Positions 3,287 through 52,828 of a stretch of 64,000 nt of DNA are shown here, piece by piece. Numbering within the stretch: position 1 is the stretch's first letter; every line of letters begins with the position of its first letter. The position numbers and the translations under genes are program-made. The notes below the pieces were generated by a model that was not told the DNA's origin, did not search any database, and worked only from the letters and a program-made list of their open reading frames with translations. Source of the DNA: Candidatus Dormibacteria bacterium (GTDB taxonomy: Bacteria > Chloroflexota > Dormibacteria > Aeolococcales > Aeolococcaceae); contig JBEKIT010000002.1 of assembly GCA_050011555.1 (NCBI GenBank), positions 22,253 to 86,252 of the forward strand, in the 5' to 3' direction.

Positions 3287-3352
3287 TCGCCGGCGACGAA
3301 TCATGGAGACGACTGGTGGGCGCGGTTCGACGATGCGGCTGAGGCCCGAGGC

Positions 3353-4692: not shown

Positions 4693-6132
4693 CTACCGGC
4701 GGCGCTCTCCGCGGCGGCCGAGCGTGCGCAGCACCCTCGCGAGGGCGCTCGAGAACCACTTGGAGCGTCGGATCCCCGAGGGGAGCCCCCGGTAGGCGGA
4801 GCGCAGCGCTCGGTAGGGGAGGCCCGGACGCGGGGGCGGCGCGTCGGCCGCAGTGAAGGCCTCAGGAGCGCCGGCGACGTCGTCCCGCGTCGGGGTGAAG
4901 GGGACCGGCAGCCGGGCCAGCCCCGGCTCGCGGTCAGCTGCAGGGCGCGGATCGGCGCAAAAGCGGCGGAGCGGCGCCGCTGCTGCCGGCCAGGTGAGCG
5001 ACGCCGCGTGGGCCACCGACCGTGCGCCACATTCCCGGCGCCTTGCGGCATCCTCCGCCAACTCCACCAGCGCGCGCGCAACGGCCTCGGGGCTCTCCGG
5101 AGGGACGGTCACCCCGATGCCCAGCCGCTCGATATCGTCGGCAAGGGTGTCGCCGGCGGTGCAGATCACCGGCAGCCCGGACCAGAAGTAGTCGAGGATC
5201 CGGGTCCGGAAGGAGAAGCGGGTCTCCACATGGTCGAAGTGGGTGGAGACGCCGATGTCGGCGTCGAGCAGCCAGTCGGCCCGGTCCTCGTACGCGACCC
5301 AGCTCTCGTTGAAGAAGACGTGGGTGCCGAGCAGGCCGAGCTCGCCGGCCACCCGCCGCGCCTCGACCTGCGTCCACATGGTCTGGATCTCCGGGTTGGG
5401 ATGCCCGGTGGACATGAAGACGAGGCGGAGGCCCGGGAGGCGCCGGGCCGCGATCTCCACCCCGCGGATCAGGGTGACGGGGTCGAACCAGTTGTAGATG
5501 CCTCCACCCCACAGCACCACGAGGTCGCCCTCGCCGATGCCGTCGATGACGCCGCGGATGGCCGGGTGCCGGCGGCGGGGCGGCTCCGAGGGAACCCCGA
5601 AGGGCACGACGTCGAGGAGCGAGCGGAGGGTCGGGTCCTGCCGATGGGTGAGCGGGTTGACCCGGCTCGCCGCGGTCAGCCATCCCAGCCAGTAGTCGCG
5701 TTGCTTCTCGCTGGCGCAGAGGAAGAGGTCGCCGTCACGGACCTGGTCGGTGACGGCCCGGATCGAGTCCCGCTGGGCCTCCAGGCGCTTCTCCAGCGGC
5801 TCCTTCGCGAAGAGGATGAGCACCTCCAGCGGGAAGGGGTCGTAGAGATCGATGACCAGCCGGACGTCCGCCTCGCGGAGCAGGGGGAAGCGCTCCATCA
5901 CCCACCCCTGGAGGATCACCACGCGGTGATCCGCCAGCAGGGCCGGCAGGCTCGACGCGTCGTAGGTGGTCACCGCGAAGGGCTGGGGCGGGAGGTCGCT
6001 GGGAAAGGGCGACGCCAGGGTCACCCGGTGCCCGTCCGCGCTCAGCACCCGGGAGAACTCGAAGGAGCGGATCGAGGGCCCTGCCATCCGCCGGTTGACG
6101 TGCTCGTTGGCGAGCACCAGGATGTCGGTCAC
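4693..6132 (-). CDS. GT4 (GT-B, retaining) glycosyltransferase, translationally coupled to rmlD.
   Basis: GT4-type C-terminal half (..VFMSTGHPNP..FNESWVAYEDRADWLLDADIGVSTH..). The proposed GTG start at 6132-6130 overlaps the rmlD stop TGA at 6131-6129 as GTGA. The longer ATG frame to 6198 overlaps rmlD by 70 nt and is less likely. Confidence 0.65.
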   Translation of the reverse strand: MTDILVLANEHVNRRMAGPSIRSFEFSRVLSADGHRVTLASPFPSDLPPQPFAVTTYDASSLPALLADHRVVILQGWVMERFPLLREADVRLVIDLYDPFPLEVLILFAKEPLEKRLEAQRDSIRAVTDQVRDGDLFLCASEKQRDYWLGWLTAASRVNPLTHRQDPTLRSLLDVVPFGVPSEPPRRRHPAIRGVIDGIGEGDLVVLWGGGIYNWFDPVTLIRGVEIAARRLPGLRLVFMSTGHPNPEIQTMWTQVEARRVAGELGLLGTHVFFNESWVAYEDRADWLLDADIGVSTHFDHVETRFSFRTRILDYFWSGLPVICTAGDTLADDIERLGIGVTVPPESPEAVARALVELAEDAARRRECGARSVAHAASLTWPAAAAPLRRFCADPRPAADREPGLARLPVPFTPTRDDVAGAPEAFTAADAPPPRPGLPYRALRSAYRGLPSGIRRSKWFSSALARVLRTLGRRGERRR

Positions 6133-6998
6133 GTCGCAGCGGGCTGCGGAGGCCGGCCGGCGAGCTCCGCCAGGTAGGCGCGCAGCCCCTCCCGCCACGC
6201 GGGCAGCGGGGCCTCCCCCAGGGCCTGCCAGGCGCGGTTGGCCAGCACCGAGTACGCGGGGCGGGGTGCCGGGGTGGGGTAGTCGGCGGTCTGGATCGCC
6301 TCCACCGGCACGCTGAGCCCCGCCTCCGCGACGATGGCCTCGGCGAAGCCATGCCAGCTGGTCGTCCCGGAGTTGGTGAGGTGGTAGGTGCCGGGCTCAC
6401 CGCGCTCGACCAGCCGGACCAGGGCAGGGGCGAGGTGCCCCGTCCAGGTGGGCGAGCCCCACTGGTCGGCGACCACGCGCAGCGCAGCCCGCTCCCGGGC
6501 CAGCCTCAGCATGGTGAGCACGAAGTTGGGCCCCTCCTGGCCGTAGAGCCAGGCCGTGCGGGCGATCTGGTGGGAGGTCAGGGCAGCGCGGACCGCCTCC
6601 TCGCCGGCGAGCTTCCCCCGACCATAGGCGCTCTGCGGGTGGGGCGTGGCCGCCTCGTCGATGGGCTCGGTCGCGGTGCCATCGAAGACGTAATCCGTGC
6701 TCAGGTGGCAGAGGAGGACGCCGCGCGGCCGGCAGGCCTCGGCCAGCACCCGCGGACCCTCGGCGTTGACGGCGTAGGCCGCCGCCTCCTCGGTCTCGGC
6801 GGCGTCCACCCGCGTCCAGGCGGCGCAATTGATGACGGCGTCGGGCCGCACCTGGTCCAGCAGGGCACCGACCGATCCGGGGTCACGGATGTCGACGGCC
6901 TCGACGTCATGCCCGGTGGCCCGGTGCGATGTGCCCGCCAGGGTCCACAGCAGCTCGCGTCCGAGCTGCCCGCGGGAGCCGATGATCTCGATCCGCAT
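6129..6998 (-). CDS. rmlD: dTDP-4-dehydrorhamnose reductase
   Basis: MRIEIIGSRGQLG Rossmann start, ..STDYVFDG.., YGRGKLAGE: the RmlD family signature. ATG at 6998. The extension to 7103 overlaps rmlB and is rejected. Confidence 0.85.
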   Translation of the reverse strand: MRIEIIGSRGQLGRELLWTLAGTSHRATGHDVEAVDIRDPGSVGALLDQVRPDAVINCAAWTRVDAAETEEAAAYAVNAEGPRVLAEACRPRGVLLCHLSTDYVFDGTATEPIDEAATPHPQSAYGRGKLAGEEAVRAALTSHQIARTAWLYGQEGPNFVLTMLRLARERAALRVVADQWGSPTWTGHLAPALVRLVERGEPGTYHLTNSGTTSWHGFAEAIVAEAGLSVPVEAIQTADYPTPAPRPAYSVLANRAWQALGEAPLPAWREGLRAYLAELAGRPPQPAAT

Positions 6999-7009
6999 CC
7001 CCGGACCGC

Positions 7010-8035
7010 TCAGCCGGCGCCCGAGCCCGGGAGGGGCGTCACCGTCCTGTAGTTGCGCTGGTAGAAGGCCCAGAACTCCCCGCTCTTGAGCGGTCTCCAC
7101 CACTCCTCGTGCTCCACGTACCAGCGCACCGTCATCTCCATCCCCTTCTCGACGTCGATGCGCGGCTCCCAGCCGAGAGTGCGGAGCTTGGTGGAGTCGA
7201 GGGCGTAGCGCCGGTCGTGGCCGGGCCGATCGCTGACGTACTGCTTCAGGGAGGGAGGCTTATCGAGGAGACGAAGCACCGTGTCAGCCACCGTGATCCC
7301 GTTGATCTCCCGGCCCGCCCCGATGTTGTAGTCCTCTCCGGGCACCCCCCGGCGCAGCGCCAGGTCGATGCCGCGGCAGTGGTCCTCGACGAAGATGTAG
7401 TCCCTCACCGCGCCCCCGTCCCCGTAGATGGGGAGGGGCCGGTCCTCCAGGGCGTTGGTGATGAAGAGCGGGATGATCTTCTCCGGGTACTGGTACCAGC
7501 CGTAGGTGTTGGAGCCCCGGGTGATGATCGCCGGTAACCCGTGCGAGGCGCGGTAGGCCTGCACCAGCATCTCCCCGCCCGCCTTGCTGGCGCTGTACGG
7601 GCTCCGCGGCCGGAGCGGGTCGCCCTCCCGGGAGCGCCCCGTGGCGACGTCGCCGTAGACCTCGTCGGTGCTCACCTGAAGGTAGCGCGGGTGCCCAGCC
7701 GCACGCGCCGCCTCGAGGAGGACGTAGGTGCCGTAGACGTCGGTGATGATGAACTGGCCGGGGGCCTCGAGGGAGCGGTCGACGTGCGACTCCGCGGCGA
7801 AGTTGACGATCGTGTCGCACCCCCGGGCCAGCGGTCCCACCGCCGCCGGGTCCGCGATGTCACCCTGCACGAAGCGGAAGCGCGCATCGCCTCGGACCGG
7901 GTCGAGGTTGCGCTCGTTGCCGGCGTAGGTGAGCTTGTCGAGCACGGTGACCTGGTCCTCGGGATGCTCACGCAGCGTCATCCGGACGAACTCGCTGCCG
8001 ATGAACCCCGCTCCTCCGGTTACGAGCAGCCGCAT
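7010..8035 (-). CDS. rmlB: dTDP-glucose 4,6-dehydratase
   Basis: MRLLVTGGAGFIGSEFVR.., YSASKAGGE catalytic motif, and overall RmlB/SDR-extended similarity. Starts 1 nt after the rmlC stop. Confidence 0.9.
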   Translation of the reverse strand: MRLLVTGGAGFIGSEFVRMTLREHPEDQVTVLDKLTYAGNERNLDPVRGDARFRFVQGDIADPAAVGPLARGCDTIVNFAAESHVDRSLEAPGQFIITDVYGTYVLLEAARAAGHPRYLQVSTDEVYGDVATGRSREGDPLRPRSPYSASKAGGEMLVQAYRASHGLPAIITRGSNTYGWYQYPEKIIPLFITNALEDRPLPIYGDGGAVRDYIFVEDHCRGIDLALRRGVPGEDYNIGAGREINGITVADTVLRLLDKPPSLKQYVSDRPGHDRRYALDSTKLRTLGWEPRIDVEKGMEMTVRWYVEHEEWWRPLKSGEFWAFYQRNYRTVTPLPGSGAG

Positions 8036-8036
8036 C

Positions 8037-8615
8037 TCAGATGTTCTCGATGCTCCAGTCGAAGCCGATGCGCGGGTCGTCCCAGGCGATCCGGCCCTCG
8101 TCGGGGTCGGCGGGATCGTAGGGCTCGGTCACGTAGTAGTTGAGGATGACGTCCTGGAGGCTCAGCACCTGGTAACCGTGGCCCACGAAAGGGGGGATGG
8201 CCACCATCTTGGGTGAGTGCTCGCCGAGGATGATCGACTGGATGCGTCCGGCGGTCGGGGACCCCTCGCGGAGGTCGACGAGAACCACGCGGGCATTCCC
8301 CTGCACGATGTCCCAGTAGTCCCACTGGCGCTTGTGCCAGTGGAAGGCCTTGATCAGCTCCGGCGGGTTCCCACCCCGCGCATACGCGAGGCTGCGGGAC
8401 ATCTGGGCAAACGGCTCGGCGGGGATGAAGGGACGGCCCTCGTCGTCGAGGTCCCCCCGCTTGAGCTGCTCGATGAAGTAGCCGCGCTGGTCGGCGTGCT
8501 TGCGGAAGGTCTTCACCATGACGCCGTCGATGCGCCCCACCCGCTGAGAGGCAGGGACGCTGCTGATGTCTGCGAGCACCCGCTCCATCGACTCGGTGAC
8601 CGCCATCCAGGCCAT
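8037..8615 (-). CDS. rmlC: dTDP-4-dehydrorhamnose 3,5-epimerase
   Basis: The C-terminal 192 aa of the long ORF match the RmlC cupin (..FRKHADQRGYFIEQ..KAFHWHKRQWDYWDIVQG..PPFVGHGYQVL..). ATG at 8615-8613 shares one base with the rmlA stop (TGATG). The upstream 140 aa of the ORF is only the other frame of rmlA. Confidence 0.85.
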   Translation of the reverse strand: MAWMAVTESMERVLADISSVPASQRVGRIDGVMVKTFRKHADQRGYFIEQLKRGDLDDEGRPFIPAEPFAQMSRSLAYARGGNPPELIKAFHWHKRQWDYWDIVQGNARVVLVDLREGSPTAGRIQSIILGEHSPKMVAIPPFVGHGYQVLSLQDVILNYYVTEPYDPADPDEGRIAWDDPRIGFDWSIENI

Positions 8616-9679
8616 CAGCGCAGCTCCACGCGGGACTGGTCGCCCAGCATCAGGCGGTAGGCGCGCGGCCGTTCCGGGGAGGAGCGCACGGTGCACCCCT
8701 TGCCGATCAGCGAGGACTCGATCTTGCCGTCGACGCCGTCGATCACGCTGCCCTCGAGGACGATCGAGTGCTCGATCTCGGACCTCCGGATCGTGCAGTC
8801 GTGGTAGATGGAGGTGAACGGCCCCACGTAGGACTGCTCGATGAGGGTCCCGGACCCGATGATGGCCGGTCCTCGGACCAGGCAGTTGCGGAGCTGCGCC
8901 CCTGTCTGGATCACGACCTTGCCCTCGAGCCGCACGTCCTCGCCGAGGAGGCCCTCGACCCGGGGCGCCAGGGTGTCGAGGATGATCCGGTTGGCCTCCA
9001 GCATGTCCTCGAGGCGCCCGGTGTCCTTCCACCACCCGGTGATGACGTGGGGCACCACCCGGGCTCCGTCATCGATCATCCGCTGGATCGCATCGGTGAT
9101 CTCCAGCTCGCCGCGGGCGCTGAGCTCGATCCGCTCGATGGCGTGGAACACCGCCGGGGAGAAGAGGTAGACGCCCACCAGGGCCAGGTCGCTCCGGGGC
9201 ACCGGCGGCTTCTCGACCAACCGGACCACTCGCCCATCCTCCAGCTCGGCCACCCCGAAGCGCTGGGGCTCGGGGACCCGGGCCAGCAGGATCTCGGCGT
9301 CCGGCTGCAGCCGGCGGAACTCGTCCACGAACTCCGTGATCCCGTCCCGGATGAGGTTGTCGCCCAGATACATGACGAACCGGTCCTCGCCGAGGAAGTC
9401 CCTGGCGATGAGCACGGCGTGGGCGAGGCCGAGCGGCGCCTCCTGGGGGATGTAGGTCACCGAGGCGCCGAAGCGCGAGCCGTCGCCGACCGCCGCTCGC
9501 ACCTCCGGGCCGGTCTCGCCGGTGATGATCCCGATCTCGGTGATGCCGGCCGCGACCACCGCCTCGATCCCGTAGAAGAGGATCGGCTTGTTGGCGATGG
9601 GGACCAGCTGCTTGGCGCTGGTGTGGGTGATCGGCCGGAGGCGGGTGCCCGTGCCCCCGCTCAGGATCAGCGCCTTCAC
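8615..9679 (-). CDS. rmlA: Glucose-1-phosphate thymidylyltransferase, long form with C-terminal left-handed beta-helix
   Basis: MKALILSGGTGTRLRPITHTSAKQLVPIANKPIL..., the canonical RmlA N-terminus. 354 aa with a hexapeptide-repeat-like tail. Confidence 0.9.
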   Translation of the reverse strand: MKALILSGGTGTRLRPITHTSAKQLVPIANKPILFYGIEAVVAAGITEIGIITGETGPEVRAAVGDGSRFGASVTYIPQEAPLGLAHAVLIARDFLGEDRFVMYLGDNLIRDGITEFVDEFRRLQPDAEILLARVPEPQRFGVAELEDGRVVRLVEKPPVPRSDLALVGVYLFSPAVFHAIERIELSARGELEITDAIQRMIDDGARVVPHVITGWWKDTGRLEDMLEANRIILDTLAPRVEGLLGEDVRLEGKVVIQTGAQLRNCLVRGPAIIGSGTLIEQSYVGPFTSIYHDCTIRRSEIEHSIVLEGSVIDGVDGKIESSLIGKGCTVRSSPERPRAYRLMLGDQSRVELR

Positions 9680-12341: not shown

Positions 12342-12634
12342 CTGATGTCCTCCTGAGCCCCAGATGTTCGATTCGAGACGCCCCGGCACGATGAGACGCC
12401 CCTGCGACGCTCCGCGACGCCTGGCGCCCTGTCGCAGGGGAGCGCTCAGGGAATGGGAGGCCGCGCGGAGTATGTGCCGCCGCACTCGGGGCCCACAAGT
12501 GCCCCCGACACATGTGCAGGCACCAACCTCGGCTTCCAGGATCCCCGGCGGCGTGGTCGGAGGCGTCGCGAGCCGCGCGCCCATGGTAGGCTCGCTGGGC
12601 CTTGCGCATCCTCCAGGGCTGAAGGATCACGTCC

Positions 12635-21868: not shown

Positions 21869-21905
21869 ATGCATCAAACGGGCCGGTAGGCTGCGCCACC
21901 GGGGA

Positions 21906-32285: not shown

Positions 32286-34079
32286 TCAGGCTGAGGACCT
32301 GGATGCACGCGCCTGATCGCGGCGGCGCGGGATCCGGAGCGTGAGCGGCCGCGGCCAGGCGACGTGCGGACCGAGGAAGGCGTCGCGCAACCGGTCCTCC
32401 GCGCCCCAGCGGAGGCAGAAGCGGCGGTAGTCGTCCTCGGGCGCGAGGCTCCCCCGGCTGGAACCCTCGTCGTGCTGGAGCTCGGCGAGCGGGGTCATCA
32501 CCACGCGCCATCCCGCCCGCCAGAGGCGGAGGCAGAAGTCGACGTCGTTGAAGGCCACGGGGAGGCTCTCGTCGAAGCCGCCGACCGCGTCCCAGGCCTC
32601 GCGGCGAACCATCATGCAGGCGCCGGTCACGGCGCTGCAGGCCCGCGCTGCCGACCAGCCGAGATCGAGGTTCGCGGCCACCCGGCCGATGCCGATGCCA
32701 ATGCCCTCGTGCTGTACTCGTCCGTCGGCGAAGACGAGTCGCGCCCCCACGGCGCCGACGCCGGGCCGCCCGCACCACTCGAGCATCGCCTCCAGCCACC
32801 CGGGGGTGCGCACCACGGTGTCGTTGTTGAGGAGGACGACGTAGGGGGTCTCGGTGGCCTCGACCCCCCGGTTGACGATGGCCGAGAAGTTGAAGTCACC
32901 CGGGTGGGGGACGACGTGCGGCAGCCGGCCCAGGTAGGCCAGGGTCCCCGGCTCGCGGCTGCCGTTGTCGACGATGACCACCCGACGGCGTGGGTGGGTG
33001 CTAGTCGCCACGCTCTCGAGGCAGCGGCGGAGCAGCTCATGCCGGTCCCGCGTGGGGATGACGATGGCGACCTCCGGGAGAGATCCGGGGTCGAACCGAA
33101 CATCGGTGACCCCGGGTTCCCGACCCGTCTCCACCCGGGCACCGGGATCGCGGGCGCGCAGCCAGGCCTCGAGGCACCGCCGCCGCACCGGCGCCGGCGC
33201 CTCGTGGGCGGAGCCCGCAGGTCGGGAGAGGGCCACCACCGGGAGGTGGCGCGGGTCGCGCAGGTGGGCCGATGCGCGCAGCAGCTCGGCATAGACCTCG
33301 GTGGGGGCGTCACTCTCGCTCCACCCCCCGGCGGCCTCCAGCAGGGCGGCCCGCTGGAGTACCAGGCCTCCCCCGACCTGGTCGCGACCCATGAGCAGCT
33401 CCGGTGACCAGCCGTAGGCCAGGTGCGGATGGTGGCGCCGGCCCCGGCCGTCCATGTCGTCCCAGTCGGTGTACGCGAGGTCGCAGTCAGGCGCCGCCCG
33501 GAGGGCCTCCGCCACCTCCACCAGGCCGTGGCGGGTCACCCGGCACCCGGGGGCGATCACGGCAACGAACTCCCCGGGCTCGGGCCGCGCCGCCTCCAGG
33601 AGGGGGGTCGCCCAGTGGGCGCCGGGCTGCCGTGGCGTCCAGCTGATGCGCGCGTCCTCGAGCGGCCCGGAGCCGTCCGGATCGGCCCAGGCCGCGGCGC
33701 GCCACCACGGGTAAGGCTGTGCCTGGAGGGAGAGCAGGGTCGCGCGGATCGCAGCCTGCTCACCGGGCGCGGAGGGGAGGAGGAGCACCACGGAGATGTG
33801 CGACTCCCAGGACTGGGCGGCGGCGGCCAGCCGGCGCAGCGCGCGGGCGTCCGGCTCTGTCCGGGCCCGCCAGCGGCGGTACTGGACCTCGAGGGGCACG
33901 CGGCTGGGGCCCGTCCCACGCCGTGGGGAAGGGCGCGACCGCCCCAGGCGGTCGAGCAGGTCGGCCGCCGCTTCTCGACGCCACAGGCTAAGCGCGCGGC
34001 GCATCCTGCCCGGCGCCGAGCGGGCCCCGCCGGGACGCTGGGGAGCGCTCACCGCACCCCGAGGCGTCGAGCCACCCAC
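32286..34079 (-). CDS. Two-domain GT2 family glycosyltransferase
   Basis: C-terminal GT2-A fold (VAIVIPTRDRHELLRRCLESV..VVIVDNGS..LLNNDT..) with DxD-like motifs. An N-terminal second GT2-like half. Overlaps the upstream gene by 31 nt. Confidence 0.7.
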   Translation of the reverse strand: MGGSTPRGAVSAPQRPGGARSAPGRMRRALSLWRREAAADLLDRLGRSRPSPRRGTGPSRVPLEVQYRRWRARTEPDARALRRLAAAAQSWESHISVVLLLPSAPGEQAAIRATLLSLQAQPYPWWRAAAWADPDGSGPLEDARISWTPRQPGAHWATPLLEAARPEPGEFVAVIAPGCRVTRHGLVEVAEALRAAPDCDLAYTDWDDMDGRGRRHHPHLAYGWSPELLMGRDQVGGGLVLQRAALLEAAGGWSESDAPTEVYAELLRASAHLRDPRHLPVVALSRPAGSAHEAPAPVRRRCLEAWLRARDPGARVETGREPGVTDVRFDPGSLPEVAIVIPTRDRHELLRRCLESVATSTHPRRRVVIVDNGSREPGTLAYLGRLPHVVPHPGDFNFSAIVNRGVEATETPYVVLLNNDTVVRTPGWLEAMLEWCGRPGVGAVGARLVFADGRVQHEGIGIGIGRVAANLDLGWSAARACSAVTGACMMVRREAWDAVGGFDESLPVAFNDVDFCLRLWRAGWRVVMTPLAELQHDEGSSRGSLAPEDDYRRFCLRWGAEDRLRDAFLGPHVAWPRPLTLRIPRRRDQARASRSSA

Positions 34080-35203
34080 GCGGCAGCTCGGCGTCCCCCC
34101 GGCACGCGACCGGTGAGGGCGCGCAAGCCCTCCATCCGGGCGTGCTCGCCGCGCAGCTGGTGCAGCAGCTCGTCACCGAGCGCGACGGCGGCCTGGAGTG
34201 CGCCGACCTGGACCCGCAACGCCTCGACCTCGGTGGGCGGCGCGGATGGCCTCGGGTCCGCGGCCTCGGGCTGGAGCGCCGGCAGCGGGCGGCGCTCGGC
34301 ACGGAGGATCGCGGCGGCCACCGCCGCGTCGCGGTCTCCGTCGGCCGGCGGCGGATCGAAGTCCCGCAGGGAGTCGCCCCACTTGGCGAGAAAGCGCCTG
34401 CCGCTGCGGACGGCCACCAGGGCTCGCAGGTCGTCGGGCAGGCTGGCGCCTCCGTGGTGAACGAGACGCGCGTTGGGCGCGTACAGGGTGCGGAACCCCC
34501 GGGCGCGGAGCGACAGGCAGAGGTCGACGTCCTCGAAGTAGGCGGGGAAGTACCTCTCGTCGAAGCCGCCGACCGCGCCCCACGCGTCGCGGGTGACCAG
34601 CAGGCCGCAGCCGGAGCAGTAGTCTGTTTGCCGGACACGGTTGTAGCTGTCTGACCCTGCGGGTAGCCCGTGGCCCACCTGATGGGTTCCCGCGTCTCGC
34701 CACAGGATGGATCCCGCCTCCTGGAGGCTCCCGTCGGGCGAGAGCAGCCGGCTGCCGACCGCTCCCGCCCGCGGCTCGCTCTCCGCCACCTCGACGAGGG
34801 CCCGCAGCCAGCCCGCCTCGACCTCGGTGTCGTCGTTGAGGAAGACCAGGTGACGGCCGCGCGCAAATCGGGCCCCCCAGTTGCACCCACCCGCGAAACC
34901 GAGGTTGACGGGTGAGGGGACGACGACCAGCGAGTCCAGGCCGGCCAGCGCGGCCAGGGTCTCCACCGGGGTGCCGTTGCCCACGACCACGACCTCGTGC
35001 GACGGCGCCTCGTGGAGCTTCGCCAGGGAGGCCAAGCAGGCGACGAGGCGATCGACGTCGGCCATCACCAGGATGACCACGGAGGCGATCGGGGAGTCGG
35101 CGACTCGCCTCCCCCGCCACACCAGGTCGGCGGCCGGTGAGGGCGGGGCCGGCCGGCCACCCGGGCGGACGCCGCCCGCCGCCACGCCCCGGGGCTCAGT
35201 CAT
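34049..35203 (-). CDS. GT2 family glycosyltransferase
   Basis: ..ASVVILVMADVDRLVACLASL..VVVVGNGTP..VFLNDDTEV..YFEDVDLCLS.. GT2 signature. ATG at 35203 lies 2 nt after the upstream stop (35196-35198). The longer frame to 35488 is rejected. Confidence 0.7.
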   Translation of the reverse strand: MTEPRGVAAGGVRPGGRPAPPSPAADLVWRGRRVADSPIASVVILVMADVDRLVACLASLAKLHEAPSHEVVVVGNGTPVETLAALAGLDSLVVVPSPVNLGFAGGCNWGARFARGRHLVFLNDDTEVEAGWLRALVEVAESEPRAGAVGSRLLSPDGSLQEAGSILWRDAGTHQVGHGLPAGSDSYNRVRQTDYCSGCGLLVTRDAWGAVGGFDERYFPAYFEDVDLCLSLRARGFRTLYAPNARLVHHGGASLPDDLRALVAVRSGRRFLAKWGDSLRDFDPPPADGDRDAAVAAAILRAERRPLPALQPEAADPRPSAPPTEVEALRVQVGALQAAVALGDELLHQLRGEHARMEGLRALTGRVPGGRRAAAWVARRLGVR

Positions 35204-38200
35204 GCCGCTGGCGGCCCTCGGCCGGACGCTGGCTTCGGTGGCTGCCCGCGGCCCCGACGACGAGGACGTCGGCGGCTCCCACGCCCTCCGGGTCGGTGAG
35301 GAAGTCGTAGATGCCGCCGAGCGCGGCATCCCAGTCGGAGTGGAACTCCGCGATGTCCTTGAGCGCCTGTCCGGCCAGGCGGCGGCGCAGAGGCGGGTTG
35401 ACCGCCATCGCCTCCAGCCTGTCCACCAGGCCGTCCACCGTTCGCGGTGCCAGCAGGCAGTTGACGCCGTCCCGCAGCAGCCAGCCACCGGCGGGGTTGT
35501 CGAGGCAGACCACCGAGGTCCCGCACGCCATCAGCTCGAGAGGAAGGTATGACGGGTGTTCGGAGACGGTGAGGGCCAATCCCATGTCGCAGCTCCGGTA
35601 CAGGTCCCCGGTCTCCGCGTAGTCGAGCAGGCCGAGGTGTGCGATCGCGGGCAGCCTGTCGCCTGATTCCACCGGGGCCCACGAGCCCGCCGCGACGATC
35701 CGGATCCGGTCCCCCATCCGATCCTTCAGCTCGTGCAGGGCGGCCTCGGCCAGCTCCCAGCAGTTGCGCCAGTGTCCGGGCCGCGCGTAGACGAAGAGGG
35801 TGACGGGGCCCTCGGGGCTCCGGCGCACCCGGTGGCGCGCGTGGAAGACGGCACCGTCGACGGCCGGGGTGAAGTGGGTGGCGGTGCCGCCGTAGGAGCG
35901 GTAGAGGCGGGCCAGGTTCTCGGTGTTGCAGATCCCGTAGAGACCGAGCCGGTAGCTCTCCTCCGCCAGAGCGTAGATGGTGCCGGCGGGGTAGAACATC
36001 GGCTCGAAGTCCTGCACCAGGTAGAAGCGCCGGCCCGCCCCTGGGTGCACCGCAACCTGGTAGGCGGTCGTCCAGAGGGTCGCGATGGCGGCGTCAGCCG
36101 CGGGCACGCGGGCCAGCTGCGCGTCGGTCTCTGCGATGAAGGTCGGTGCGGAGGCCAGCCCGGGGAATGCCGCCGCGATGCCGGTGCGGATGTACTCCTC
36201 GGGCCCGAGCCCGCAGACGACGAAGCGGTTCTCGACGGCGTGATCGGCGGCGAGCTTGGTGGCCAGGCGCAGGGCGGTATTGATGCCGCCGTAGAAGGGG
36301 CTGTCGATCCCGGGTATGAACCAGTTGACGGTTCGGGGGGCGGCCGGTGCGGAGTGGGCCCGGTGCTGGGCCTTGACCGCATCCACCTCGGCGGGGTCGA
36401 TCCGGCAGCGTGAGGCGAGCGCGGCAGCCTGAGCGAGGTCGTCCTGTGAATGCCAGATCGAGAGCCGGCGTCCGACGTGGGGGGCCGCCAGCTCAACGGC
36501 CGCCGGCTCGCCCGGCCGGCGGAGTCGTGGCGCGGTGCTCTCGACACTGAGACGGGGATGGAAGTACGGGTCTCCTGAGCGAATCCAGCGTTGGTAGCGC
36601 CACCACGACACGAAGTAGTCGGAGCGCGGTACGGTCGGGCCACGCGTCGCCGACTCCAGGTGGGTGAGGGCGTTGCTCGGCACGCAGAGGCTGCGCAGCC
36701 CGCGCTGCCGGAGGGCGAGGCCCAGGGCCACGTCGCTGCCACAGAGGGTGAATTCCTCGTCGAAGCCGCCCACGCTCTCGAAGTTGTCACGCCGGACGGC
36801 GACGCAGGCGGCGGTGACGGCGAGGACGTCCCGGTACCAGGAGCTGGAGCCAAGCAGGGTGGACGAACCGGGGCGCAGCCCCGCGAAGAGGTGGCCCGCG
36901 AAACCGGTGAGCCCGAGGATCACGCCGCCATGTTGGATCCGGCCCTGGGGATCGATGAGCTGGATGCCCACCGAGCCCACCTCGGTGACCGTCGTCCAGC
37001 CCACCAGCTTCTCGAGCCAGCCGGGATCTCCGGTGACCCGGATGTCGTCGTTGAGGAAGAGCAGCACCCCCCCGGTGGCCGCTCGCGCACCGGCGTTGTT
37101 GACCGCTGAGTAGTTGAACGGCCGATCCCACCAGATGACGGTGGGGTGGAGCGGCCGCCCCTCGTACCAGCTCTCGTTCTCGGGGGTCCGCGCCCCGTTG
37201 TCGACGATCACCGCCTCCAGTTCCGGATAGCCGGAGCGAGCCAGTCCGTCGAGCAGGGGGCCGACCAGTGCCCGGTTGTGGCGGGTGGGGACGATCACGC
37301 TCACCCGCGGCCAGGAGGACAGGTCCCAGTTGACACGGACGGCGTCGCCACGCCACCGAGCCGTGGCGGGCCAGGAGCGGCGCTCGAGGGCCTGGCCGAC
37401 CACCGTGACGGCGTCGCCGGGTGGGATCGCGGCGGTGGTCCGAACACGGCCGAGCACCTGAGGGATGTGGCTCACCCGATCGCCCGCCATCTCGCAGCGG
37501 AGGAGGAGGTCCCAGAGCTTCGCCCTCCCCGCCTCTTGGCGGACGCCGCCCGCGACCAGGGCGCGCGCGGACCGCAGGGCGAAGCTCCGGTCGAGATAGG
37601 GTGCCGACAGCAGGACCTCGGGGGACCAGGACGGTCGGAGCCGTGGGCGCCAGCGACCCCCGCCGCCGCTGGCCTCGTCGTCCCAGCTGACCAGATCGAT
37701 CAGTGGGTCACGGTGGACGCTGGCGGCGACCTGGTAGAGGCAGCTCGGTGCCAGGGTGTCGCCCGCCTCGAGGAAGATGACCATCTCCCGGTGCGGGATC
37801 TCCGCGAGCACAGCATTGATCCCCCCGGCACCGAGCCCACCATGATGGTGTTCGACGCGCGCACCGCCGGAGTGACCAGACTGAGAGCCGCGATGCTTGG
37901 TCGGGTGCAGCACGGCCGCCCGCCAGTGCGGCCAGGTCTGACCCTCCAGTGAACGCAGGGTGGCGGCCAGCGAACCCCCGGATCGCGCCAGCACCAGCAC
38001 CGAGAACGCCTGGGGACGCGCCACCCCCAGGGCCGCCAGGTGCTGGAGCGCCGCCTCGGCGGTGACGAACACCCCGGGGTCGACCGGGGCGGCGGACTCG
38101 ACCGCTCTCGAGGGTGGTGCTGAGGGCTCTGTGCGCCGCCCCAGGGCTCGCTTGGCGACCCGGCGCCGGCGCGACCCCGGCGGGAGCAGTCGGCGCGCCA

Positions 38201-39008
38201 CGCCGCTGGCGGCCGCCGCCGCCCGGTAGGTGGTGGACCCGTGGACCGCGGCGAGCATCCGCCGGGCTTCGTCCAGCTCCGGGCCGCCACCACCCTCGCC
38301 GGACTGGGTGCCCGCCAGCTGCCGAGCGCGGGCGAGCTCGGCGCGAACCTGGCGCAGCTCGGCGAGCAGGACCTCCTCGGCGGTCGGAGCCCTTCCAGGC
38401 TCGGGAGCGACCTCGGCGGCGTACAGGTCTGAGCGCCGTTCCCCGGAAGCGGCGAGGATGACACGGTTGGGCGGCACGGTCCCGCGCACCCCGCACTGCC
38501 AGCGGCTGTTCTCACCCGTCTTGTAGTAGACGGGCGCCCAGGTCGCGGTGTCGACCGGTCTGATGTCGATGAGTCCGGCGCGCTCGAAGAGGCGGGTTAG
38601 CGACTCGATGTCGTGGCACCAGCGGTGGTGACTGGGCTGGACATACGAGTAGACGAACGAATCGTTGAGGATGACGTTGTCCACCTCGCCGTCCAGGTAC
38701 GCGCGGAAGATCGCGCGCATGTCCGGGGTCACCGCGGACACCGTGGTCCCGGCCGCCAGCCGCTCCGCCACGGTTATCAGGAGCACCACCGCGTCATCCA
38801 GGGTGAGGTGCTCGATGAGGTGCCCCATGTACACCTCGCTGATGCTCTCCGCGTGCTCCCGGATGAACTCGACGGCGTCGCCGTGCACGTCGGCGCGCAC
38901 ATCGGGATCGCTGTCGACGTTGACCCAGCCATCGAGGTACAGCGGCCCGCAGCCGAGGTTGACCCTCACCGCCTGGCCGCCGCCACGCGCGTCGAAGCTC
39001 CGAGCCAC
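35196..39008 (-). CDS. Trifunctional glycan-synthesis enzyme: N-terminal class I SAM methyltransferase, a central GT2 domain, and a C-terminal GT-B (GT4, WsaF-like) domain. Its architecture resembles WsaE/WsaF-type rhamnosyltransferases.
   Basis: MT motif VNLGCGPLYLDGWVNVD. GT2 region VSVIVPTRHNRALV..VIVDNGA..FLNDDIRV. C-terminal WFIPGIDSPFYGGINTALRLA...EHPSYLPLELMACGTSVV is a GT-B fold. 1270 aa. Confidence 0.7.
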   Translation of the reverse strand: MARSFDARGGGQAVRVNLGCGPLYLDGWVNVDSDPDVRADVHGDAVEFIREHAESISEVYMGHLIEHLTLDDAVVLLITVAERLAAGTTVSAVTPDMRAIFRAYLDGEVDNVILNDSFVYSYVQPSHHRWCHDIESLTRLFERAGLIDIRPVDTATWAPVYYKTGENSRWQCGVRGTVPPNRVILAASGERRSDLYAAEVAPEPGRAPTAEEVLLAELRQVRAELARARQLAGTQSGEGGGGPELDEARRMLAAVHGSTTYRAAAAASGVARRLLPPGSRRRRVAKRALGRRTEPSAPPSRAVESAAPVDPGVFVTAEAALQHLAALGVARPQAFSVLVLARSGGSLAATLRSLEGQTWPHWRAAVLHPTKHRGSQSGHSGGARVEHHHGGLGAGGINAVLAEIPHREMVIFLEAGDTLAPSCLYQVAASVHRDPLIDLVSWDDEASGGGGRWRPRLRPSWSPEVLLSAPYLDRSFALRSARALVAGGVRQEAGRAKLWDLLLRCEMAGDRVSHIPQVLGRVRTTAAIPPGDAVTVVGQALERRSWPATARWRGDAVRVNWDLSSWPRVSVIVPTRHNRALVGPLLDGLARSGYPELEAVIVDNGARTPENESWYEGRPLHPTVIWWDRPFNYSAVNNAGARAATGGVLLFLNDDIRVTGDPGWLEKLVGWTTVTEVGSVGIQLIDPQGRIQHGGVILGLTGFAGHLFAGLRPGSSTLLGSSSWYRDVLAVTAACVAVRRDNFESVGGFDEEFTLCGSDVALGLALRQRGLRSLCVPSNALTHLESATRGPTVPRSDYFVSWWRYQRWIRSGDPYFHPRLSVESTAPRLRRPGEPAAVELAAPHVGRRLSIWHSQDDLAQAAALASRCRIDPAEVDAVKAQHRAHSAPAAPRTVNWFIPGIDSPFYGGINTALRLATKLAADHAVENRFVVCGLGPEEYIRTGIAAAFPGLASAPTFIAETDAQLARVPAADAAIATLWTTAYQVAVHPGAGRRFYLVQDFEPMFYPAGTIYALAEESYRLGLYGICNTENLARLYRSYGGTATHFTPAVDGAVFHARHRVRRSPEGPVTLFVYARPGHWRNCWELAEAALHELKDRMGDRIRIVAAGSWAPVESGDRLPAIAHLGLLDYAETGDLYRSCDMGLALTVSEHPSYLPLELMACGTSVVCLDNPAGGWLLRDGVNCLLAPRTVDGLVDRLEAMAVNPPLRRRLAGQALKDIAEFHSDWDAALGGIYDFLTDPEGVGAADVLVVGAAGSHRSQRPAEGRQRHD

Positions 39009-39017
39009 CTCATCGGC

Positions 39018-40133
39018 CTATTCTGACCTGTCCGATCGGGGGGGCGCTGAACCCCTGCCTCCGGGTCGGGGGTCATGAGCGGCGTTCGTCAGCCGCTCCC
39101 GCACCGAACGGATAGTCCCGTCAAGCCCTCTCTCCGCCAGCTTGGTGACCTCGCGCGCCAGCGCGGCAGTGAGGCGCCTCCGCCGGGTACCGGCGGGCGC
39201 GGCTCGGCGCACCGCGGCACGGCACATGACCGCGACGCGGATCGCCGCGCTCGCCTGCAGCTCGCGATACTCGTCCACCACCGCGGACTGGGACTGGAGC
39301 CGGGCCTGGAGCTCCTCGAGCAGGCTGCCCGGGTCGGCGAGCCCGGGATCGCGCCGCCCGCCGTCCGCCGAGGGGTCGCGTGCCGTCCTGCCGGCCTGAT
39401 CCCCGGGGGGGAGCGGTGGGAGGTCATCGATGCCCTTCCCAAAGATGAAGATGTACTCGTCGTCCTCGCCCGGGCGGGATGCAGCGAACTCCAGCAACTC
39501 CAGGGTGACACCCGCCTCGGCTCGCGCCGCCGCGATCACCTCGAGGAAGCCCTCTGGGCGCCACACGTGGAAATGGATGCTGTAGTCCATCCCCATCAGC
39601 TCCCGAACACGATCCGGGCCGGTGGGCACGCCGGCATCGATCATCCACTCGACGAGGGGCTCCGCGCGTTCCACCCACTCGGCGTAGTGCACCTCGCGGG
39701 TCGCGTCGGTGCCGGTCCGATACTCGCCAGCCACGTGATCGATCGGAGTCAGATCCCTGGCCCGGTCGAAGGTCAGGCGCGGATCGGGCAGCGCCACGTA
39801 GAGAATCCCCCCGGGTCGCAGCACACGCGCCATCTCCTGCAAGCCGCGGATCGGGTTCTCCAAGTGCTCCAAGAGGTGGTTGGCGATTACGAAGTCCTGC
39901 GAGCCGTCGCCGAAGCGCGAGAGGTCCTCGGCGTCGCCGATCAGGTCGACGGGGACCAGCGACTGGTCGCCCAGCTCCGGGTAGTGGCGCTTGAGATCCT
40001 CCGCATTGAAGCGGTCCACGTAGTGAACCGTCGCCGCGGGAGGTACGGCCAGAGGGTTGTGCAGAGCCCCGATCTCGATGCCGGAACCTTGCAGCCATCG
40101 GGCGGCGTGGCTCCGTTTGGCGGTGACCTTCAC
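39018..40133 (-). CDS. Class I SAM-dependent methyltransferase with a C-terminal coiled-coil-like extension
   Basis: ..GSQDFVIANHLLEHLENPIRGLQEMARVLRPGGILYVALPD.. (methyltransferase type 11). GTG start at 40133. The stop lies 10 nt upstream of the next gene start. Confidence 0.7.
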   Translation of the reverse strand: MKVTAKRSHAARWLQGSGIEIGALHNPLAVPPAATVHYVDRFNAEDLKRHYPELGDQSLVPVDLIGDAEDLSRFGDGSQDFVIANHLLEHLENPIRGLQEMARVLRPGGILYVALPDPRLTFDRARDLTPIDHVAGEYRTGTDATREVHYAEWVERAEPLVEWMIDAGVPTGPDRVRELMGMDYSIHFHVWRPEGFLEVIAAARAEAGVTLELLEFAASRPGEDDEYIFIFGKGIDDLPPLPPGDQAGRTARDPSADGGRRDPGLADPGSLLEELQARLQSQSAVVDEYRELQASAAIRVAVMCRAAVRRAAPAGTRRRRLTAALAREVTKLAERGLDGTIRSVRERLTNAAHDPRPGGRGSAPPRSDRSE

Positions 40134-40295: not shown

Positions 40296-43200
40296 TCAGG
40301 GCTGGAACCAACCGGCCACGTCAACGATGGCGTTGATGCTGCCCAGGTCGTTGAAGAGGTCCATCTCTCCCGCCGAGCTCCCCGTGCTTGCCAGCTGGAC
40401 GATGCACAGGTTGGGGGTGTTCTGCTGCGGGCTGACGTTCAGGTCGCTGGCATTGGGTAGCGCGACATTGGCCGGGTAGAGGGTGAAGTAGGTGAAGGCG
40501 CTCCCCGACACCGCGGTGACGTTGGCGATCACCGCCACCGGCGGCGAGCTGCCGCCCGCGGGGGGCGGGCCGTCCACCCCCGCCACCGGAATCCTCAGGG
40601 TCCCACCCGGTCCGAGGGTGTCGCCGGAGCACTCGGTGGAGTACCCGACGCTGGCTACGCTGCGCGTGTCGCAGATGCGGGTGGGTGAGATCGCGTAGAA
40701 CTCCGCGCCTTGGCTACTCTCGCTCCCGGTCCCGAACCAGCCATTGACATCGAGGATGAAGTTGATGGTGCCCAGGGAGTTGTAGACGCAGACGCCCTGG
40801 TCCGGTCCTAGGGGCACGATCACCCGGTTGGGGAGATTGGTCTGCGGGTTCACGTTGACGTTGGAGAACTGGGGCGTCCCGCTCGGACAGGTGCCACCGA
40901 CTCCGGCGGGCTCCACTGCCATATAGGTGAGCGAGGTCCCCGAGACCGCGGTCAGATTGAGGGCCACCGCCGCCGCGTCCGTGGTCGGCACCGAGGTGCA
41001 GGTGGGGTCGCCGCTGGGGCAGCCACTGACCACCACCTTGGTCCACTGGCCGGGGCCCAGGGGGCTGCCCGAGCAAGCGGTGCCCGTCCCCGAGCGGCTG
41101 TCGCAGATCCGGAGCGGGGAGATGGGGTGGAAGAGCCCGGGGATCGACGAGGAGCCGGAGGGTCCGGCGAAGTACCCCTGCACGTCGACCGCGATGTTGA
41201 TCGAGCCGAGCGAGTTGTAGATGCTCACCTGGCCGTCCGTCCCCAGTGCGACCACCACCAGGTTGGCCTGGTTGCTCGCCGCGTCGACGTTGAGGTTGGA
41301 GGCGGTGGGCACCGCCGAGCCGGCCGGGTACACCGTCAGGAAGGTGCCGGCGGTGCCGCTGATGGCGGTGACGTTGAGCACTACCGACTGAGCGTCGCTG
41401 GGCACCGACTCGCTGTCCACAGTGACCCCGGTTACCGGGAAGGTCATGGTCTGGCCCTGCCCCAGCGGGTCGTCGCTCGAGCACTCGGTCGAGTACCCGG
41501 TGACGGCGGAGCTGCGCGTGTCGCAGATCCGGAAGGGTTGCAACGCGGTGTACGCCGTCGCAGTCGGGTAGGTAAACGACGAGCTCTGGATTCCGGAGCC
41601 GAGGACACTCGACCCGTCGACCGGGACCGTGCCGCTGCCCGCCGGAACGACGACCGTCGCCTGCGTGGCATTCGCGGACACCACCTGCGCGGGGGTCCCC
41701 CCGAAAGAGATGGTCGCGTGCTCCAGTCCCAATCCGAACACGGTCACCTCGGTCCCCGGCAGCCCCATGGACGGCTGGATCGAGGTGATCTCAGGACAGG
41801 ACAGCCCGGCCGCCCGGGGTGAGCCGAGACCGGTCGCACCGTCATACCCCGATGTTGCCGGGTACTCGCCGCCGTTCGACCCGGTCATGTCGTTGTTGCC
41901 GCTCGTGACGTCGGTCAACGCAGTTCCGTAGGCGCCCTCCGCGGCGAGCCCGTACAACGCCGGGGTCCACAGCCCGCTGGACGTTGTGCAGCCGTCGTTT
42001 CTGTCGGCCACCAGGCCTGCCACCAGCGGCGCTGCGAAACTGGTCCCTCCCCCCGCGGCCCAGCTGCCGTCGGCATAGACGACCATGCCGACGCCGGCGT
42101 TCGCGGAGATGTCCGGCACCTCCCGGCAGGACGGGCCGCAGGGTGGGAGTGAGCCCGTCCACTCCAGGACCCCGGGCTGCCAGTTCGGCCTCTGAATGTA
42201 GATCGACATCCCTCCACCGCCGGCGGCCATGCCGCCATCGTCCACTGCGCAGGGGAGGCTCTCGTCGGTCTGGCAGAAGTTCCACGTGACCTCATCCGAC
42301 GGCGAGAACAGCTCTGTGCCACCCACGGTGGTCACATCCTCGTCCGATGCGGGATAGTCGACCTCCAGCGACGTCGAGCCGTTCTGAGCAAAGCAGCCCT
42401 CGGACCCCGAGTCGCCGGCGGCTGCCACCACGGTCTGCCCCTGCGCCGCCGCCTCCTCGAACAGCGTCGGGAACGAAGAGAGATCGCCATCCTCGGAAGC
42501 GAGTGGCTCGCACTCGCCCCAGCTGGTCGAGATCACCTGGGCGGCGTCCGCATGCACGATGGCGTACCAGGTGTCGTACGCGCCCGTGTCCGTGTCGTTT
42601 GGTCCCTCGTAGGAGATGATCGATGCGCCGGGAGCCTGGGTGGCGGCCTGCTCGATGTCGAGGTCAGCCTCGGCGGTGCCGCCCCCCCCAACCGCGCCGC
42701 CCCCTCCATCCACGGGCACCGTGCTGACCGAGTCAGTGAGGCCGAAACAGCTCTCGTAGGTCTCCACGTCGGTGACCGAGTGCGAGGCCAGCTCGTAGAG
42801 GCCGATGGTCTCTCCGTGACCGTTCTGACCGTCGACCAGCAGCGTACCGATCCCGTAGGCGGCGCCCAGCTCGTCCAGCGTGTAGTAGTCACCGGATGGC
42901 GTGGTGGCCGCCCTCACCGCCGCCGCGCATGGGGTCAGGCCATCCGCTTCTGGCTGCGGTGAGATGCCGCCCGAGACCGCAGGAGCCGGCGTGCTCAGCG
43001 GCACGAACTGGGTGAGCGTGTTCAGACCGAGAATCGCGGATATCTGGCCTCCCGCGAGCGACTCGGGAACCAGTGGCGTCTGCTGGGCCAGGTAGCCGTC
43101 GGCGCCCGATCGAGCACGATACCGTTCGAACGACGTGCCCAAGGCCGTGGCAACGTCCTGTTCTGAAGCCGAGATGTCAACGGCGAAGCCCGCGAGTGAG

Positions 43201-46013: not shown

Positions 46014-46136
46014 GGACGGACCCCCTTCTGCGCGGCAGGACGCACCCAGCGACCGCTCGAGGCCGGGCCATGACGCGTCCACGCCCGGCCATGACGCCCG
46101 CGGGAGCCGCCGCGCCGGCTCCGTAGACTGGTCGAG

Positions 46137-47412: not shown

Positions 47413-47907
47413 ATGCGGGTGAGCTCCAAAGCTCACTACGGCCTGCGGATGATGACCGAGTTCGCCCGGGCCTATGGAAGCGGTCCGATGAGCCTTGCGG
47501 AGGTCTCCCGGATCGAGCACCTGCCCCTCTCCTACCTCGAGCAGCTCGCCGCCCAGCTCCGCCGTGGCGGGCTGGTCGAGTCCACCCGCGGGGTGCACGG
47601 CGGCTACCGCCTGACCCGCCACCCTGCCCTGATCTCGGTGCTCGAGGTGGTCGAGGTGGTCGAGGGAGAGGTGTCACCGGTGGAGTGCGTCGCCCACGAT
47701 TACGTCCCGGGCAGCTGCATCCGGGAGGGGGACTGCGCCTCCCAGCCGCTCTGGCGCCGGCTCAAGGCGTCGATCGACGCCGTGCTCAGCCAGACCACCC
47801 TCGCCGAGCTGGTCGCCGACCACGCCCTCGTCAGCAGCTTCGCCCCGCTGCCCGTGCTCCCCGACCGGGGGCGCCGGGGGGCGGTTCAGGAGGTGGCCCA
47901 TGCCTGA
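47413..47907 (+). CDS. Rrf2 family transcriptional regulator (IscR/SufR-like), first gene of the suf operon
   Basis: MRVSSKAHYGLRMMTEFA.. winged-helix Rrf2 N-terminus. Cys cluster C..C.....C (..VECVAHDYVPGSCIREGDCAS..) consistent with Fe-S ligation. Overlaps sufC by 8 nt. Confidence 0.75.
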   Translation: MRVSSKAHYGLRMMTEFARAYGSGPMSLAEVSRIEHLPLSYLEQLAAQLRRGGLVESTRGVHGGYRLTRHPALISVLEVVEVVEGEVSPVECVAHDYVPGSCIREGDCASQPLWRRLKASIDAVLSQTTLAELVADHALVSSFAPLPVLPDRGRRGAVQEVAHA

Positions 47908-52822: not shown

Positions 52823-52828
52823 ATCAGC

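Follow-up and report, generated by a model that had tools for sequence, protein, structure and literature searches.

Can one bacterial polypeptide both polymerise a glycan and cap the finished chain? The question is raised by a gene in a 64,000-nucleotide stretch of DNA from a Candidatus Dormibacteria bacterium (assembly GCA_050011555.1, contig JBEKIT010000002.1, positions 22,253 to 86,252), hereafter the window, whose product joins a methyltransferase (MTase) to glycosyltransferase (GT) domains. We consider it rather probable that this fusion protein is a single-chain enzyme of the WsaE plus WsaF type, which polymerises and caps a rhamnan and is cytoplasmic, either soluble or membrane-peripheral. 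The basic logic of such a system is known from Geobacillus and Escherichia coli, which makes the protein interesting, not surprising. The case stands on domain architecture, active-site conservation, donor pathway and synteny, and we infer the remaining mechanism.

The reading frame singled out in a preliminary description of this DNA is present, and it contains every peptide quoted there (VNLGCGPLYLDGWVNVD; VIVPTRHNR, VIVDNGA and LNDDIRV; FYGGINTALRLA and EHPSYLPLELMACGTSVV):

35196..39008, minus strand: fusion open reading frame (ORF), 1270 amino acids (aa) from its longest start

We regard it as a real gene because its GC content is 0.89 at the third codon position (GC3) against 0.53 at the second (0.73/0.53/0.89 over the three positions), in a window of about 70% GC. 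The true start is probably the GTG at 38969 (MRVNLGCG...), which would give 1257 aa, since most homologues with such an N-terminus open with M-[K/R]-V-N-L-G-C-G. Counted from this GTG, the gap to the upstream stop is about 48 nucleotides (nt), compared with about 10 nt from the longest-ORF start. No transmembrane segments are predicted in the fusion protein.

From its N- to its C-terminus, the protein carries a methyltransferase domain (MTase-A), a helical linker with a basic motif, a degenerate GT-A domain, an intact GT2 domain and a WsaF-type GT4 domain:

38454..38969, minus strand: residues 14-185, MTase-A, a class I S-adenosylmethionine (SAM)-dependent methyltransferase, from Pfam matches of orthologues, AlphaFold2 (AF2) and Foldseek
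38019..38453, minus strand: residues 186-330, helical linker with the basic motif RRLLPPGSRRRRVAKRAL, from homologue consensus, AF2 and a linker hidden Markov model (HMM)
37329..38018, minus strand: residues 331-560, GT2a, a GT-A fold domain, from hhalign and AF2
36369..37328, minus strand: residues 561-880, GT2b, an intact GT2 domain with VIVPTRHNR, VIVDNGA, FLNDD and GGFDE
35259..36368, minus strand: residues 881-1250, a WsaF-like GT4 (GT-B) rhamnosyltransferase domain, from Pfam and WsaF in the PDB

The preliminary description had proposed three domains, a methyltransferase, a central GT2 and a C-terminal GT-B/GT4; all three stand, and the linker at 186-330 and the degenerate GT-A domain at 331-560 had been overlooked.

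The C-terminal domain can be specified further as WsaF-like. Pfam places WsaF_N at residues 894-1021 (37.4 bits) and WsaF_C at 1070-1198 (69.2 bits; cut-offs 27), and the PDB entries of WsaF (2x0d/2x0e) match residues 888-1167 with E = 1e-15. Mutation of ten WsaF residues inactivates or weakens the enzyme (F62/D171/F176/Y247/R249/R254/K302/H326/Y329/E333; PMC3898925). Their counterparts here are, in the same order, Y906/D1000/F1005/Y1074/R1076/R1081/H1124/H1151/Y1154/E1158. Eight of the ten are identical (F62 is replaced by Y906 and K302 by H1124), and 41 homologues show no variation at nine of the ten positions, the exception being H1124, which is not listed as conserved. The central GT2b domain is intact, with all the usual GT2 motifs: Glycos_transf_2 (PF00535) covers residues 570-681 (52.2 bits, cut-off 23.3, E = 8.7e-14), N653, D654 and D655 do not vary among 41 homologues, and D603, N604 and G605 are conserved too. 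Per-domain Pfam searches with the window protein itself thus return Glycos_transf_2, WsaF_N and WsaF_C above their cut-offs.

The assignment of the N-terminal domain as a SAM methyltransferase is borne out by its orthologues and its predicted fold. Thirteen of 15 orthologous MTase-A domains match PF13489 in Pfam (best 3e-10). Motif I (VNLGCG), WVNVD at the acidic end of strand 2 and the stretch GHLIEHL are all present in the domain, and the first two are conserved in the homologue alignment. Its AF2 model has a predicted local distance difference test (pLDDT) score of 82, and the top 50 Foldseek matches of this model in the PDB are all SAM methyltransferases or SAM-binding close structural relatives (E ~2e-5). 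In the linker that follows, the basic motif is conserved as RRLLPPGSRRRRV, and AF2 predicts helices of at most 26 residues each at model residues 25-103, with a pLDDT of 55-70.

GT2a is homologous to GT2b (hhalign E = 1.8e-4) and is modelled by AF2 with a pLDDT of about 90. Its motifs were compared over 135 aligned sequences, comprising the window protein and 134 representative proteins with the same didomain. A canonical class (n = 63) carries xPNxP, LCIADDGS, DHDD and YSDEDK; a second class (n = 57), to which the window protein belongs, has lost PN, DDGS and DxD and has xAGD and xWDDD instead. This degenerate form makes up about 40% of a very large family, the GT2a-GT2b didomain alone having 8139 representatives at E<=1e-30. 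Because only D417 (120 of 135) and D443 (135 of 135) stay conserved, GT2a is probably non-catalytic or non-canonical. Asked whether they might be inactive remnants, the GT domains therefore give a divided answer: GT2b and the WsaF domain keep their key residues, whereas GT2a lacks the canonical motifs. The AF2 model of residues 186-885 best matches the two-GT-A polymerases K4CP, PmHS2 and mimivirus R699, and both GT-A domains align in these matches (~520-545 columns, E down to 4e-16).

How would these parts work together? A lipid-linked primer would be the acceptor for chain growth. The inverting GT2b site would add alpha-L-rhamnose (alpha-L-Rha) and the retaining WsaF site beta-1,2-L-Rha, in alternation; the donor of the latter would be deoxythymidine diphosphate (dTDP)-beta-L-Rha, for which the rmlABCD pathway is encoded nearby. 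GT2a may hold the acceptor or act as a scaffold, which seems likelier than catalysis of a third linkage. MTase-A would then O-methylate the non-reducing terminal rhamnose and so end chain growth, as reported for WsaE. It is by analogy with WsaE and WbdD that we propose methyl capping and control of chain length.

A second methyltransferase is encoded directly upstream:

39018..40133, minus strand: MTase-B, a standalone Methyltransf_11 protein of 371 aa (Pfam 49.2 bits, cut-off 21.2)

The preliminary description had placed a methyltransferase here at a distance of 10 nt. The enzyme class is right, although the spacing depends on the longest-ORF start. MTase-B is a different enzyme from MTase-A, of the Methyltransf_11 type. 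Its catalytic domain takes up about residues 1-240, and its tail bears the linker motif AAPAGTRRRRL. Run against every one of the window's 552 six-frame ORFs, an HMM built from 40 homologues of the linker matched the fusion at 1e-12 and the MTase-B tail (about residues 283-332) at 8.7e-5, the next best ORF reaching 0.11. Our claim of a shared linker motif relies on this profile search, since the pairwise similarity of tail and linker is marginal (11 of 500 shuffles reach it). We also considered the C-terminal tail of the downstream GT2 protein (34049-35203) as a linker module and dropped it, as 33 of 500 shuffles reach its score and the HMM gives no match.

The same parts recur elsewhere in other combinations. 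The fused N-terminal domain of the closest relatives (P0004-P0007, loci L005 and L007) is MTase-B, not MTase-A, and that of P0004 shares 68% identity with the MTase-B of the window. Standalone forms of MTase-A (277-296 aa) end right after the linker motif and are encoded directly upstream of a GT2-GT2-WsaF gene in L088 and in L090, the latter from Candidatus Dormibacter; in L088 the gene overlaps that of the polymerase by 4 nt, and GT4-wzm-wzt come next. Since the methyltransferase is fused in some loci and separate in others, we regard methyltransferase, helices and basic motif as a module, of which the window holds two in tandem. A fused MTase-A beside a separate gene resembling MTase-B recurs in L017 and L019. 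MTase-B probably joins the complex in trans via its linker tail and adds a second or alternative methyl group. The related rhamnan-type cluster of L088, with its split MTase-A, also includes an S-adenosylhomocysteine hydrolase gene (2998-4266), which could hint at heavy methyl flux or be a coincidence.

The junction of the two genes is itself unusual. The MTase-B and fusion ORFs share one frame, with a single TAG at 39018-39020 between them. An assembly error at this stop was considered and rejected, as an independent metagenome contig (L087; 99.94% identity, 6 mismatches over 10,184 bp) carries both ORFs plus the intervening stop; no evidence was found for readthrough of the TAG. Between 38969 and 39020, the shared frame and the presence of the linker motif in both ORFs look like a recombination scar. 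Such a scar looks like the trace of an MTase-A-linker cassette placed behind an MTase-B-linker cassette. The domain-wise identities point to a mosaic origin, because the MTase-B-fused relatives share 76-81% identity with GT2b and the WsaF domain, and for MTase-A the identity to any relative is only 54-61%. GC3 is 0.85 in MTase-B and 0.89 in the fusion ORF.

Which sugar would be polymerised? Further glycosyltransferase genes follow the fusion gene, and a nucleotide-sugar operon lies farther downstream:

34049..35203, minus strand: single-domain GT2, likely ATG at 35203, overlapping the end of the fusion gene by 8 nt
32286..34079, minus strand: GT2 didomain protein with a degenerate GT-A and an intact GT2, a paralogue of fusion residues 331-880
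8615..9679, minus strand: rmlA, glucose-1-phosphate thymidylyltransferase, long form (TIGR01208 464 bits, cut-off 320)
8037..8636, minus strand: rmlC-like dTDP-4-dehydrorhamnose 3,5-epimerase (TIGR01221 E=3e-19, 69 bits; tblastn)
7010..8035, minus strand: rmlB, dTDP-glucose 4,6-dehydratase (TIGR01181 430 bits, cut-off 365)
6129..7103, minus strand: rmlD, dTDP-4-dehydrorhamnose reductase (TIGR01214 322 bits, cut-off 224)
4693..6198, minus strand: GT4 glycosyltransferase, 45-47% identical to its orthologue in related loci, a ~460-aa GT4 encoded right beside the fusion gene

The rmlABCD genes are the only sugar-nucleotide pathway found in the neighbourhood and are syntenic in relatives; the rmlC-like gene is divergent, its 69 bits falling under the equivalog cut-off of 156. 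Between the GT operon (MTase-B, fusion, GT2 and GT2 didomain) and the rml-GT4 operon lie about 22 kb that encode large secreted proteins. The first half of the didomain protein is as degenerate as GT2a, and in a relative of 1871 aa (P0003; L006 10001-15616) the fusion protein continues at its C-terminus into this didomain, which gives six catalytic-type domains. Across the 64-kb window we found no Rfam family at gathering score and no tRNA gene, and a scan of 31.5-44.5 kb found neither a sigma-70-like promoter nor an intrinsic terminator.

Related loci suggest a route for export. Our counts of gene context and methyltransferase fusion refer to the best 80 loci, and in most of these wzm and wzt are adjacent. 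In L001, L002 and L004, wzm and wzt (with Wzt_C) immediately precede the fusion gene, the ~460-aa GT4 adjoins it and rml genes lie near; L002 also bears a gene for a LytR-CpsA-Psr (LCP) ligase. In actinobacterial relatives the fusion gene comes directly after wzm and wzt (Wzt_C), often with overlapping codons. In E. coli O8/O9a systems, the C-terminal domain of Wzt goes with terminally modified chains. For most related loci, the capped chain would be exported by Wzm-Wzt, with a Wzt that has a C-terminal carbohydrate-binding domain. The loci closest to the window are L043 (77%, Candidatus Dormiibacterota), L007 (66%), L005 (66%) and L006 (61%), and they are organised as in the window. As judged from gene order, Wzm-Wzt export is supported for most relatives and not for this lineage.

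The fusion had been called rare in the preliminary description, a view that a wider search overturns. A word-indexed search yielded at least 45 clusters of full-length homologues (46-70% identity over 97% of the length), and when one genome per species was scanned, 199 genomes proved to hold relatives of the GT2-GT2-WsaF core. The hosts are mostly Actinomycetota (Acidimicrobiia, Frankiales, Mycobacteriales, Blastococcus, Modestobacter and Bifidobacteriaceae), together with metagenome-assembled genomes (MAGs) labelled Dormibacteria or Chloroflexota. The common form is a core of about 1000 aa (linker, GT2a, GT2b and WsaF domain); of the best 80 loci, about 18 have MTase-A in addition. Among soil bacteria, the joined form is a common one. 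Members are named "rhamnosyltransferase WsaF family glycosyltransferase" or "O-antigen biosynthesis protein" at NCBI, and a literature search turned up no open-access work in which the fused protein is characterised.

The oddest aspect is the surroundings of the gene. In this lineage the cluster has no ABC transporter, and interspersed in it are genes for secreted enzymes with an undescribed triple-repeat module in common; these and other features of the window are:

40299-41552(-), 9882-11129(-), 25316-26572(+), 20609-21865(+), 23688-24905(+), 14681-15922(+) and 17358-18599(+): a triple-repeat module of about 420 aa, in seven secreted proteins
12623-15925(+), 21639-24908(+) and 40296-43598(-): three paralogues of about 1090-1100 aa, with TIG at about residue 600 and the triple-repeat module C-terminal
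25115-32146, plus strand: 2343-aa protein with the triple-repeat module near its N-terminus and Kelch repeats C-terminal
145-1533(+), 1520-3286(+), 3353-4681(+) and 44385-46013(+): four polytopic membrane proteins with 4-9 hydrophobic segments
48088-51159, plus strand: SufB with an intein that bears a LAGLIDADG endonuclease domain

The module consists of three repeats of about 140 aa (P.RICDTR ... LNVTAV ... YP.G ... DV.GWF) and matches nothing in Pfam at standard thresholds or in NCBIfam and PDB sequence searches at relaxed thresholds. The catalytic heads of its carriers vary: sedolisin-like with a pro-kumamolisin activation domain, PQQ beta-propeller, Rv2525c-like glycoside hydrolase, Kelch and TIG. 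Among the three paralogues, Pfam finds the pro-kumamolisin activation domain only in the third (40296-43598(-)), and the 2343-aa protein has a weak Tox-HDC match (E=1.3e-4) inside its Kelch region. More than 611 proteins in public data carry the module, those named by taxon coming from Dormibacteria- or Binatia-labelled MAGs. It occurs inside the same cluster in L005, L006, L007 and L043, and not in actinobacterial or split-gene loci. For the four polytopic membrane proteins, searches of Pfam and NCBIfam at relaxed thresholds gave no family; they are conserved beside the cluster in L043 and L005/L007, and their loop motifs GDEFEF and NNDEGDH recall GT-C glycosyltransferases. We regard them as candidates for the missing export or transfer step. 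The module, for its part, may bind a wall polymer. A bolder idea, to which we give little credence, combines these elements: the methylated rhamnan would be the wall ligand of the module in a new anchoring system, comparable to the binding of secondary cell wall polymers by SLH domains, with the four membrane proteins replacing Wzm/Wzt and the two interchangeable MTase modules setting the methylation pattern that is recognised. Farther along the window, SufB adjoins SufC (47633-48739), with cysteine desulfurase-type genes at 46095-47324 and 52823-54082.

Several of our results count against a polymerising and capping enzyme. The MTase-A of the window falls under the Pfam threshold (Methyltransf_23, E=0.04). 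GT2a has no PxxN, DDGS or DxD and carries EAGD and WDDE instead; both GT domains of WsaE are reported active, whereas this first GT-A domain is without the canonical nucleotide and metal motifs. In the 64-kb window we found neither wzm/wzt nor a gene for an initiating transferase or an LCP ligase, and the four closest loci (L005, L006, L007 and L043) show no wzm/wzt in flanks of up to 10 kb. Nor does the fused methyltransferase correlate with the C-terminal domain of Wzt, long Wzt proteins occurring both with and without it. The sugar specificity, the linkage and the methylation site of the product are, moreover, what we infer. The lack of a correlation bears on an alternative in which the methyltransferases methylate the polymer stoichiometrically, at every repeat or on many residues and at two positions, and chain length is set otherwise. 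Two complete MTase modules in tandem, a window without a Wzt that has a cap-binding domain, and the hydrolase gene inside the L088 cluster fit this proposal, as do the methyltransferases of the Pseudomonas aeruginosa common polysaccharide antigen (CPA), which are unlike the regulator WbdD (PMC3560663). We nevertheless judge it unlikely, as WsaE, the sole characterised enzyme with such a domain order, methylates terminal rhamnose (PMC2943079), and most related loci place the gene right after wzm-wzt with Wzt_C. The product might also be something other than a rhamnose homopolymer if a different nucleotide sugar serves as donor for GT2b or for the GT2 and GT4 enzymes encoded nearby, giving a heteropolymer or a partial repeat unit. 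The conserved neighbourhood does hold three further GT genes (34049-35203, 32286-34079 and 4693-6198), the donor of a GT2 enzyme cannot be read from its sequence, and the NCBIfam model of a rhamnosyltransferase subfamily, TIGR01556, is absent from the matches of the fusion protein and matches the two downstream GT2 proteins weakly, below cut-off. With rmlABCD as the one sugar-nucleotide pathway found in the neighbourhood, syntenic in relatives, and a WsaF domain that keeps residues implicated in donor binding, we rate the chance of such a product as low.

The destination of the glycan is a separate matter. Instead of being linked to peptidoglycan, it could be moved onto proteins, in the manner of the Geobacillus S-layer, with the large secreted proteins between the operons as candidate targets. 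WsaE and WsaF do serve O-glycosylation of an S-layer protein, in this lineage the cluster also encodes seven large secreted proteins and four polytopic membrane proteins of no assigned class, and the window has no LCP ligase. However, we found no recognisable oligosaccharyltransferase (Wzy_C/WsaB-like), and the LCP ligases of some related actinobacterial and Dormibacter loci point to wall attachment, so that protein glycosylation seems doubtful to us. Finally, the tandem could have arisen by recombination and now be in decay, with one methyltransferase or even the entire gene non-functional. The shared frame, the one stop between the ORFs and the duplicated linker motif would agree with this, as would the mosaic origin suggested by the lower identity of MTase-A (54-61%) relative to the GT domains (76-81%). 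Yet both ORFs are intact with a coding-type GC3 (0.85 and 0.89) and conserved motifs, a second assembly, with 6 single-nucleotide polymorphisms, shows the same arrangement, and the fused MTase-A with a separate MTase-B-like gene recurs in L017 and L019; we hold decay to be very improbable. A single-chain enzyme that polymerises and caps a rhamnan is thus the reading we prefer.

If this is true, one polypeptide would perform both elongation, with an alpha- and a beta-rhamnosyl linkage, and termination. It would offer a compact subject for the coordination of polymerisation with capping, a question still open for WbdA/WbdD and WsaE/WsaF. Natural variants, with an MTase of type A or B that is either fused or separate, already provide a set of domain swaps. 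It would be worth explaining what the degenerate GT-A domain does. The family occurs widely in Actinomycetota and in Dormibacteria-like soil bacteria, organisms with cell envelopes that have hardly been studied.

How does the protein compare with known systems? By structure, residues 186-885 are best matched by K4CP, the chondroitin polymerase of E. coli K4, and PmHS2, a heparosan synthase of Pasteurella. Identity is 10-12%, and the domain orientation is not superposable (root-mean-square deviation 16-22 A). These enzymes have two catalytic sites, whereas here the first site is degenerate and the GT-B domain supplies a second or third activity. The CPA of P. aeruginosa, a D-rhamnan, is an ABC-transporter-dependent rhamnan with two separate methyltransferases (PA5457 and PA5459), which are partly redundant and, in their behaviour, unlike the chain-length regulator WbdD (PMC3560663). 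In that system D-rhamnose comes from guanosine diphosphate (GDP)-D-Rha, the polymerases WbpX, WbpY and WbpZ belong to GT4, and the methyltransferases have no interaction domains and are not fused to glycosyltransferases.

WbdD and WbdA of E. coli O8/O9a are nearer to the arrangement proposed here, in that a methyltransferase terminating the non-reducing end is physically coupled to polymerising glycosyltransferases. Further likenesses are a helical segment between the terminator and the remainder of the complex and, in related loci, a Wzt with a C-terminal carbohydrate-binding domain. The differences lie in the polymerase domains, which are GT4 mannosyltransferases in E. coli and GT2 plus WsaF-type here, in the kinase domain of WbdD, which the fusion lacks, and in the coupling, which is covalent here and achieved by recruitment in WbdD/WbdA. 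A molecular ruler like that of WbdD was also considered and is unlikely, as the linker helices are short (<=26 residues) and modelled with low confidence, compared with the long coiled coil of WbdD.

The comparison with WsaE, suggested in the preliminary description, fits by domain order; for this protein, likeness was judged from published domain descriptions and domain order. Ten candidates of ~1000-1130 aa from a search of representative proteins were rejected as WsaE, since they come from other organisms, such as Methanoperedens. WsaE joins an N-terminal 2-O-methyltransferase to two rhamnosyltransferase domains, in the gene order wzm-wzt-wsaE-wsaF, and methylates terminal rhamnose (PMC2943079). 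WsaE and WsaF of Geobacillus stearothermophilus NRS 2004/3a, which polymerise and cap the L-rhamnan of its S-layer glycan, together present the same order of functions as the fusion protein: a methyltransferase, two GT-A/GT2 domains and a WsaF-type GT4. For WsaF, the likeness is one of direct sequence homology (E=1e-15) with functional residues kept, and the loci agree in that rmlABCD are associated with the gene here and that related loci mostly place it after wzm-wzt, as wsaE is placed. Unlike the Geobacillus locus, the window has no wzm/wzt, WsaP-like initiator or WsaB-like transferase, and it has an extra methyltransferase module upstream. The hosts are far apart, a Firmicute in one case and a high-GC lineage related to Dormibacteria in the other, and what Geobacillus makes as two separate proteins is here one polypeptide.

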